Shown here: positions 3,274 to 4,137 of the stretch, in pieces
Layout: every line of letters begins with the position of its first letter
How positions within the stretch are numbered: the first letter of the stretch is position 1
Virus record (IMG/VR): IMGVR_UViG_2713896783_000030
Strand: one strand, 5' to 3'
DNA from: a virus
Taxonomy: Duplodnaviria > Heunggongvirae > Uroviricota > Caudoviricetes
DNA: 5,073 nt
Made by a program: the position numbers and the translations under genes
The notes under the pieces: model-generated
What the model was told of the DNA's origin: nothing
Databases searched by the model: none
Seen by the model: the letters and a program-made list of their open reading frames with translations, nothing else

Positions 3274-3645
3274 ATGCAAAAAAAAGAAATTCGCCGTTTA
3301 CGTCTCAAGGAGTGGTTTAAAGATAAAACTCTGCCACCCAAAGAGAAGAGCTACCTATCTCAACTAATGAGTGGGAGAGCCTCGTTTGGAGAAAAGGCTG
3401 CCAGAAGAATAGAGCAAACATACGGGATGCCGGAAGGGTATCTGGATGCGGAATACGCAGAACAACCGGGGGGTTCTCCACCACATGCAGGGTTAACGTC
3501 TAATCAACTGGAATTATTGCAGATTTTTTCAGCCTTCCCTGAGGATGAGCAACGCCAGATAATCAGCGAGTTAAAGCAGAAAAAAGAATCAATGGAAGAT
3601 CTCATAGCGAGATGGATTGCGGCGCAAAAATGCCGCCGCGCCTGA
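3274..3645 (+). CDS. paaR: CI-like XRE-family HTH repressor without a peptidase domain (PaaR-like prophage repressor)
   Basis: 123-aa protein from ATG 3274 (MQKKEIRRLRLKEWF...KEKSYLSQLMSGRASFGEKAARRIEQTYGMPEGYLD, an HTH_XRE-like fold). No Shine-Dalgarno, and the predicted promoter places the transcription start at or near the ATG. The GTG at 3211 listed in the ORF track adds only a hydrophobic non-domain extension. Symbol assigned from recalled literature on CP-933P and not checked by search. Confidence 0.75.
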   Translation: MQKKEIRRLRLKEWFKDKTLPPKEKSYLSQLMSGRASFGEKAARRIEQTYGMPEGYLDAEYAEQPGGSPPHAGLTSNQLELLQIFSAFPEDEQRQIISELKQKKESMEDLIARWIAAQKCRRA

Positions 3646-3665
3646 GTTATAAAACCGGAGGAAAC

Positions 3666-3857
3666 ATGAATAGAGCCCTTTCACCAATGGTTTCTGAATT
3701 TGAAACCATTGAACAAGAAAACAGTTACAACGAATGGCTGCGTGCGAAAGTAGCAACGAGCCTTGCAGATCCGCGCCCAGCAATTCCCCATGACGAAGTT
3801 GAGCGCAGAATGGCAGAACGCTTTGCTAAGATGCGCAAGGAACGGAGCAAGCAGTAA
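3666..3857 (+). CDS. paaA: Small antitoxin (63 aa) of a ParE-family toxin; PaaA-like
   Basis: ATG at 3666 preceded by GGAGG (3657-3661). MNRALSPMVSEFETIEQENSYNEWLRAKVATSLADPRPAIPHDEVERRMAERFAKMRKERSKQ. Stop TAA at 3855-3857, one nt before the toxin ATG. The 81-aa ORF in the track is an N-terminal over-extension. The 63-aa size matches what I recall for PaaA2. Confidence 0.75.
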   Translation: MNRALSPMVSEFETIEQENSYNEWLRAKVATSLADPRPAIPHDEVERRMAERFAKMRKERSKQ

Positions 3858-3858
3858 A

Positions 3859-4137
3859 ATGTTACCCGTGTTATGGCTTGAAAGCGCAGATACCGACCTA
3901 GATGATATAACTAGTTATATTGCTCGTTTCGACATAGATGCGGCTGAACGCTTATGGCAGCGATTAAGGGGTTGTGTGCTGCCGTTATCCGAACATCCGT
4001 ATTTATACCCACCAAGCGACAGAGTACCTGGCTTGCGTGAGATTGTAGCCCACCCTAACTATATAATTCTATACCGCGTAACAACATCAAGCGTTGAAGT
4101 AGTAAACGTGATCCACGCAAGACGCCAGTTTCCCTAA
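3859..4137 (+). CDS. parE: ParE/RelE-superfamily toxin (92 aa)
   Basis: MLPVLWLESADTDLDDITSYIARFDIDAAERLWQRLRGCVLPLSEHPYLYPPSDRVPGLREIVAHPNYIILYRVTTSSVEVVNVIHARRQFP has ParE hallmarks (W..A..DL..I..YI, PG.RE, YRV, V..V.H.RR). ATG at 3859 in a TAAAATG junction with the antitoxin stop; GGAG about 11 nt upstream. The 124-aa ORF in the track is over-extended. Confidence 0.85.
   Translation: MLPVLWLESADTDLDDITSYIARFDIDAAERLWQRLRGCVLPLSEHPYLYPPSDRVPGLREIVAHPNYIILYRVTTSSVEVVNVIHARRQFP

Follow-up and report, generated by a model that had tools for sequence, protein, structure and literature searches.

The 5,073-nucleotide stretch of viral DNA filed in IMG/VR as IMGVR_UViG_2713896783_000030, which we call here the window, is almost certainly the immunity region of a lambdoid prophage of the CP-933P/Sp12 type, from Escherichia coli O157:H7 or a very close relative, and it carries the three-gene operon paaR2-paaA2-parE2 (RAE2) of that prophage. 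An earlier note on this DNA had named the operon and had taken it for a probably known system, and it was right on both counts: the encoded proteins are identical to chains of known structure (PaaR2 over residues 1-66), and many E. coli O157:H7 chromosomes match positions 2874-4300 with 100% identity. Nothing contradicts the identity of the locus as paaR2-paaA2-parE2. The operon of the cryptic prophage CP-933P (O157:H7 EDL933) and that of Sp12 of Sakai are the same locus, and CP-933P shares with the window the 97-bp control region, the operators, the PL933P promoter and the YdaT box, without any difference within the operon.

The locus, its structures and its regulation have already been published in detail (Hallez et al. 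2010 Mol Microbiol 76:719; Sterckx et al. 2016 J Mol Biol 428:1589; Jurenas et al. 2021 mBio, PMC8630535; Prolic-Kalinsek 2023, PMC9986795), and therefore its finding here has little weight as a discovery. Operon structure, footprints, reporter assays, bistability, plasmid stabilisation and structures have all been shown by others, and the published experiments describe a CI-like repressor, the Cro and CII analogues YdaS and YdaT, the operator regions OR and OL, a toxin-antitoxin pair in the place of rexAB and the bistable control of the locus (PMC8630535, PMC9986795). As for the biological role, the module is most likely an addiction device, which stabilises the immunity region of the prophage.

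Identity of the operon and of its three products

At least 80% of the region 2874-4300 is held by 590 of the 5426 complete E. coli genomes. In one of the O157:H7 genomes, TR01 (NZ_CP033605.1), the RefSeq annotation places the locus inside a defective lambdoid prophage, where the genes follow the order YdaT, YdaS, RAE2, ydfC and dicB. One flank carries Q, RusA, a DnaC-like ATPase, an O-like helix-turn-helix (HTH) protein, YdaT and YdaS, and the other ydfC, dicB, a truncated exonuclease disrupted by an insertion sequence, an excisionase and, beside ynfA, a truncated integrase. In the ‘phages’ collection a single record, Escherichia phage Evi (LR597642.1, 40 kb), matched over the full length, at 98.3% identity; Evi is described as a coliphage that was obtained from the faeces of infants.

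The three open reading frames (ORFs) of the operon all lie on the plus strand, and the layout in the earlier note, with no more than 20 bp between the first two genes, ORFs of 63 and 92 residues and a toxin ATG one nucleotide after the antitoxin stop, proved exact to the base. These are not chance ORFs, because their products match PDB chains and Pfam families. The features of the three-component system, namely a ParE toxin, a PaaA antitoxin encoded directly upstream of it and a regulator gene in the first position, are all found at the sequence level.

The toxin ParE2 is 100% identical over 92/92 residues to PDB chain 5cw7_B (E=7e-60; ‘Plasmid stabilization protein ParE’), and also matches 5cze; weaker matches are found with the ParE toxins 3kxe and 6x0a (both at about 1e-5) and 5ceg. 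Its Pfam match to PF05016 ParE_toxin covers the full profile (1-89/89; 1.9e-16, above cut-off), so that the family search proposed for the toxin gave what had been expected. The same search turned out otherwise for the antitoxin, for which a family of the ParD/CC2985 type had been foreseen. PaaA2 is identical to PDB chain 3zbe_A over 62/62 aligned residues (2-63; E=5e-37), with further matches to 5cw7 and 5cze, and its sole Pfam match is PF21217 PaaA2 (1e-19, above cut-off), a toxin-binding motif of 33 positions. No ParD, ribbon-helix-helix (RHH), PHD or HTH family was matched by PaaA2 in Pfam at E<=0.01, and because neither an RHH nor a PHD domain was found, PaaA2 is better classed by these profiles as a family of its own (PF21217) than as a ParD/CC2985-type antitoxin. 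The NCBIfam model that it also matches (NF050103, 5e-24) bears the name ‘RelB family antitoxin’, a label that is a naming convention and no evidence of an RHH domain. Lacking RHH, PHD and HTH domains, PaaA2 cannot autoregulate alone.

The regulator PaaR2, built of an HTH domain at the N-terminus and an oligomerisation region at the C-terminus, is identical over residues 1-66 to PDB chain 7nkv_A (E=5e-41), a construct of the PaaR2 N-terminal domain that is named ‘Phage repressor protein CI’; 8c3k and 8c3l are also matched. Pfam gives PaaR2 no significant domain (HTH_31 is found below threshold, with E=0.064 and 14 bits against a cut-off of 27), and the HTH assignment therefore rests on the solved structure, while DNA binding by PaaR2 has been demonstrated by electrophoretic mobility shift assays (EMSA) and footprinting (PMC8630535). 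Residues 72-119 resemble the C-terminus of DicA, at a sub-threshold score (NCBIfam NF007257, 1.4e-06; 28 bits against a cut-off of 101). No match to Peptidase_S24 was found in the 123 residues of PaaR2 even at E<=10, and the published account states that the protein has no peptidase motif and reports it as unresponsive to mitomycin C (PMC8630535). The description of the first gene as a CI-like HTH repressor thus stands for the function, since PaaR2 is a CI analogue by function (PMC8630535), and, through the solved structure, for the HTH fold, but not for the family: without an S24 autocleavage domain, PaaR2 is a functional CI analogue outside the CI/LexA family, and is not SOS-inducible.

Upstream of the paaR2 ATG there is no Shine-Dalgarno sequence, and PaaR2 is translated from a leaderless messenger, with an experimentally determined N-terminus MQKKE (PMC8630535). 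The gap between paaR2 and paaA2 (3646-3665) contains GGAGG at 3657-3661, and a single base (3858) separates the paaA2 stop from the parE2 start; parE2 is probably translationally coupled to paaA2. No stem-loop or attenuator was found at the paaR2-paaA2 junction (3606-3670), which folds no better than its shuffles (z=-0.34), and no RNA family of Rfam was matched anywhere in the window at gathering thresholds. An internal promoter for paaA2-parE2 was looked for and found no support: the promoter scan shows none within the paaR2-paaA2 gap or a short way before it, its only internal candidate is a weak site inside parE2 (3878-3906), and the 5 promoter-like sites in total do not clearly exceed the 2.5 +/- 1.7 expected from shuffled sequence.

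Operators, promoters and the divergent ydaS-ydaT genes

The earlier note had also seen two related operator regions on both sides of the three genes, and several features bear this out. The 97-bp length of the ydaS-paaR2 intergenic region, OR, is the published figure (PMC8630535). The motif GTTTAGT occurs four times in the whole window (3187, 3206, 3245 and 4209), with three copies in OR and one just downstream of parE2, against an expectation of 0.45; none of 200 shuffles reached four. The motif belongs to a five-copy family of 14-nt repeats across OR (3187-3200, 3206-3219 and 3245-3258) and OL (4209-4222 and 4231-4244). Moreover, a perfect 12-nt block, TACTTGACTTAA, is common to OR (3226-3237) and OL (4219-4230) in inverted orientation, and the hexamers that the promoter scan gives for PL933P and PR933P are identical, in agreement with the published statement that both promoters have the same -35 and -10 elements (PMC8630535). 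The hexamers of PRM933P were read from the sequence and placed through the published 5'-RACE, in which the start of transcription is the start of translation (PMC8630535).

Table 1. Features of the window discussed in the text, with positions counted from its first nucleotide
Feature	Positions	Strand	Description
DnaC-like gene	753-1493	-	
O-like gene	1500-2477	-	
ydaT	2485-2877	-	CII analogue, POU-type HTH activator of PRE933P
OM	2867-2884		YdaT primary operator, TTGATTTTCATGAATCAA; spans ydaS stop and ydaT start, at PRE933P
ydaS	2874-3176	-	Cro analogue, XRE-type HTH repressor; PF15943 YdaS_toxin 3.3e-12, HTH_3 6e-07
OR	3177-3273		Divergent control region, ydaS-paaR2 intergenic, 97 bp
PR933P	3234-3205	-	-35 TTGACT 3234-3229, -10 TAAACT 3210-3205, spacer 18; faces ydaS (promoter scan)
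PRM933P (putative hexamers)		+	-35 TTGCTT 3239-3244, 17-nt spacer, -10 GATAAT 3262-3267; +1 at the A of the paaR2 ATG, 3274
paaR2	3274-3645	+	ATG 3274, TGA ending 3645, 123 aa; CI-analogous leaderless repressor/activator
paaA2	3666-3857	+	ATG 3666, TAA ending 3857, 63 aa; intrinsically disordered antitoxin without DNA-binding domain
parE2	3859-4137	+	ATG 3859, TAA ending 4137, 92 aa; ParE-fold toxin
Hairpin	4156-4202	+	Inverted repeat with 22-nt arms, between parE2 stop and OL
OL and PL933P	4209-4250	+	Operators; -35 TTGACT 4222-4227, -10 TAAACT 4244-4249, spacer 16; points away from the operon

On the divergent side, the functions of YdaS, supported by EMSA, footprint and reporter data (PMC8630535), and of YdaT (PMC8630535, PMC9986795) have both been described. 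The operator OM matches exactly the published 5'-TTGATTN6AATCAA-3', the only match in the window, and a YdaT footprint on it has been described, with OM and PRE933P located on the ydaS/ydaT border (PMC9986795). The ydaT frame of the window is broken by a run of 50 N (2725-2774), where the TR01 counterpart has 83 nt (11819-11901 of the TR01 sequence, L001). Because these lengths differ, the run has an arbitrary length, as a mask or an assembly gap, and the true ydaT product would have 141 aa instead of the 130 aa read from the window. At the equivalent position in TR01, RefSeq annotates a ‘toxin YdaT family protein’, though YdaS and YdaT have been shown not to be a toxin-antitoxin pair (PMC8630535).

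The published behaviour of the locus is that of a switch. Both PaaR2 and YdaS footprint on the 97-bp region, and each of them represses PRM933P, PR933P and PL933P; YdaT switches on the otherwise silent PRE933P; and the locus is bistable, with two heritable states, RAE2-on and ydaST-on (PMC8630535). In our reading of the window, PaaR2 is made from a leaderless messenger starting at PRM933P and binds the repeated GTTTAGT-type operators in OR and OL. At low levels it activates PRM933P, as has been reported (PMC8630535). It represses PR933P (ydaS-ydaT) and PL933P, and at high levels its own promoter as well. Competition of YdaS for the same operators gives rise to the two heritable states, and binding of YdaT to its box at 2867-2884 turns on PRE933P and opens a second transcription route into the operon, in which paaA2 and parE2 are co-transcribed downstream of paaR2, in the place that rexA and rexB have in lambda.

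The transcript of the operon may end at the hairpin downstream of parE2, which could be an analogue of tIMM. Its RNA fold has -23.7 kcal/mol (z=-5.4), and none of 200 shuffles was as stable; the hairpin has no U-tract, was not called by the terminator scan and was not found described in the published accounts of the locus. A comparison with phage Evi gave no covariation: at 4200 and 4202 the phage has changes that break the two outer pairs without compensation and a third change, at 4179, falls in the loop, and therefore the support for the hairpin is only thermodynamic.

Biological role of the toxin-antitoxin pair

For proteins identical to those of the window, it has been reported that ParE is toxic, that PaaA neutralises it and that post-segregational killing occurs (PMC8630535 and its reference 8), and the region as a whole matches ccdAB in the efficiency with which it stabilises an unstable mini-F plasmid (PMC8630535). 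Earlier work, as summarised in PMC8630535, describes PaaA2 as lacking a DNA-binding domain and as a substrate for degradation by ClpAP and ClpXP, and ParE2 as a protein that colocalises with the nucleoid and triggers the SOS response. PaaA2 wraps around ParE2 and neutralises it; when the locus is lost, the longer-lived ParE2 is set free, triggers the SOS response and kills the cell. Since it is loss of the locus that lets ParE2 kill, the module is most likely an addiction device.

Several points set limits to the reading given so far. None of the complete genomes is identical to the window over its full length, the best reaching 99.7%, with the differences from the complete O157 genomes outside the operon only, including a nonsense change at 4729 and the N-run in ydaT. 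The published experiments used the EDL933 allele, itself identical over 2874-4300. Transcription of the pair takes place in either switch state, the SOS response is raised in neither, and neither released ParE2 in single-cell assays (PMC8630535). The idea that the pair is under direct control of the lysis-lysogeny switch therefore holds for transcription, where control by PaaR2, YdaS and YdaT is published (PMC8630535), but switching as such frees no toxin. Finally, ParE2 is given in a review that cites Sterckx 2016 (PMC10886550) as not binding GyrA59 and not inhibiting gyrase, unlike ParE of the RK2 type. As a ParE-family toxin it is thus confirmed by fold and full-length profile, while membership by gyrase-poison activity is doubtful, and the label ‘gyrase poison’ should not be assumed for it because of that report.

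The immunity region of lambda, with cI-rexA-rexB between OR/PRM and OL/PL and with cro and cII opposite, has the same layout and logic as the window. Common to both are a leaderless repressor gene, divergent PR and PRM promoters with repeated operators, a second set of operators downstream with a PL-type promoter, accessory genes co-transcribed with the repressor, and Cro-like and CII-like genes on the other strand. The placing of the pair in a slot equivalent to that of rexAB, between OR/PRM and OL/PL, is accordingly well founded and has been published likewise (PMC9986795). However, the proteins show no sequence relationship to CI, RexA or RexB, PaaR2 lacks the S24 domain, four 18-bp inverted repeats are reported (PMC8630535) instead of three operators, and a toxin-antitoxin pair takes the place of Rex as the cargo. 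The genomic position is all that the pair has in common with RexAB. Other prophages offer parallels for single elements. In Qin of K-12, paaR2 corresponds in position to dicA (PMC8630535), whose product resembles PaaR2 in the C-terminal 50 residues, and the YdaS-YdaT proteins of Rac of K-12 have their homologues here; in the reference genome dicB and ydfC follow downstream. When the authors compared these immunity regions, they reported no paaA2-parE2 pair at the dicA and cI positions (PMC8630535).

The exact rexAB position between PRM/OR and OL/PL (PMC9986795) also favours a different role, in which the pair would mainly be a Rex-like module of superinfection exclusion or abortive infection, expressed in lysogens: an infecting phage would shut off host transcription or trigger the degradation of PaaA2, and ParE2 would kill the cell before the phage completes its cycle. 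Co-transcription with the repressor, and therefore expression in lysogens, the lability of the antitoxin and the lack of a physiological trigger found under steady-state conditions (PMC8630535) all agree with such a role. We nevertheless consider it unlikely, although not negligibly so. None of the three proteins matches a defence-system model in PADLOC-DB, and their matches in Pfam, NCBIfam and PADLOC are to toxin-antitoxin families or none, with no RexA or RexB homology; phage-challenge data were not found in the published accounts of the locus; and the sole demonstrated phenotype is post-segregational killing with plasmid stabilisation. Moreover, a Rex-like role is compatible with an addiction role.

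Another view would take the pair as an ordinary, self-regulated two-gene parDE system that sits by accident beside an unrelated repressor, without forming one unit with it. The pair does share with the canonical parDE systems (RK2 ParDE, Caulobacter ParDE1 3kxe and Vibrio cholerae ParDE2) the ParE fold, an antitoxin gene upstream, a near-overlapping stop and start, a labile antitoxin and post-segregational killing; the authors themselves suggest that it was inserted into the immunity region (PMC8630535); and NCBI annotates a two-gene toxin-antitoxin system only, with paaR2 as a ‘hypothetical protein’. Unlike those systems, however, this antitoxin has no DNA-binding domain of the RHH, PHD or HTH kind, and regulation is left to a third protein and the prophage switch; the promoter scan also gives no site within the 20-nt gap or a short way before it. 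A single PaaR2-repressed operon has been published, and since the operon and reporter data already refute an accidental neighbourhood, this view is very improbable. Still less credit can be given to the view that the module no longer has a function and is decaying as what is left of a dead prophage, for which one could invoke the defective state of CP-933P (PMC9986795), the pseudogenes around the locus in the reference (a frameshifted DUF1627 gene, truncated exonuclease and integrase genes and an insertion-sequence insertion) and the nonsense change in a neighbouring zinc-ribbon gene of the window. Many O157:H7 genomes carry the three ORFs intact and without any difference, the module is also intact, at 98.3% identity, in an isolated coliphage in which parE2 has changed only synonymously, and promoters, repressors and toxin are all active in the published experiments.

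Prophage neighbourhood and the copy in phage Evi

Beyond the immunity genes, the window holds further pieces of the prophage. The O-like replication gene contains about six 15-nt repeats in tandem (2038-2127, of the TCAAC-GTTGA / TTTGACGGG type), which encode a repeated DPS/STV peptide and resemble origin iterons within an initiator gene, as in the origin of lambda. At the left end (1-727), an ORF on the minus strand (548-727, 59 aa, HTH-like) is apparently the N-terminal piece of a DUF1627 gene, whose TR01 copy (L001 9049-9818) carries a frameshift according to RefSeq. Over its left 2.7 kb, the window is only 98% identical to TR01, with three indels. On the right, the minus-strand frame 4568-4768 encodes a protein of 66 aa, an ‘ECs_2282 family putative zinc-binding protein’ with a zinc ribbon (CPECGG...CKNCGH), which is hit by the nonsense change at 4729 (A here, C in TR01; codon 14 GAA to TAA); the gene would be either a pseudogene in this strain or the site of a sequencing error. 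The two annotations conflict in strand over this region, where RAST calls in phage Evi a plus-strand ORF (4433-4789, 118 aa, downstream of PL933P) and PGAP calls the zinc-ribbon ORF; the plus-strand ORF matched no Pfam or NCBIfam family.

Phage Evi carries the whole region from ydaT-ydaS through paaR2-paaA2-parE2 to OL intact, with the module at 6401-7264 of the Evi sequence (L002). Its parE2 (L002 6986-7264), which is unannotated in the record, differs from that of the window by two nucleotides, both synonymous, and encodes an identical protein. PaaR2 of Evi has two changes in the linker (G66E and G67I), and PaaA2 has one (K55R). These differences are consistent with selection on the proteins, for what so small a sample can tell, and the copy suggests that the switch may also be present in a phage that still forms particles. 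The intact module of Evi, with its unannotated parE2, is one small addition to the known picture.

One could go further and propose that live temperate coliphages, Evi among them, use the module as their working switch between lysis and lysogeny, with a Rex-like paaA2-parE2 pair whose toxin has a target other than gyrase. We hold this extension as speculative and rather improbable; if true, it would turn what has been known as a relic of a cryptic prophage into a lysogen-expressed defence that protects from other phages or keeps the immunity region from being replaced.

The RefSeq annotation still conceals the system, as its naming lags behind the literature: in TR01 (NZ_CP033605.1, L001 11579-13264), paaR2 is the ‘hypothetical protein’ mentioned above and paaA2 is ‘relB / RelB family antitoxin’. 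The locus is a useful textbook case of a toxin-antitoxin pair whose transcriptional control is handed to the bistable switch of a prophage, of the CI/Cro/CII type.

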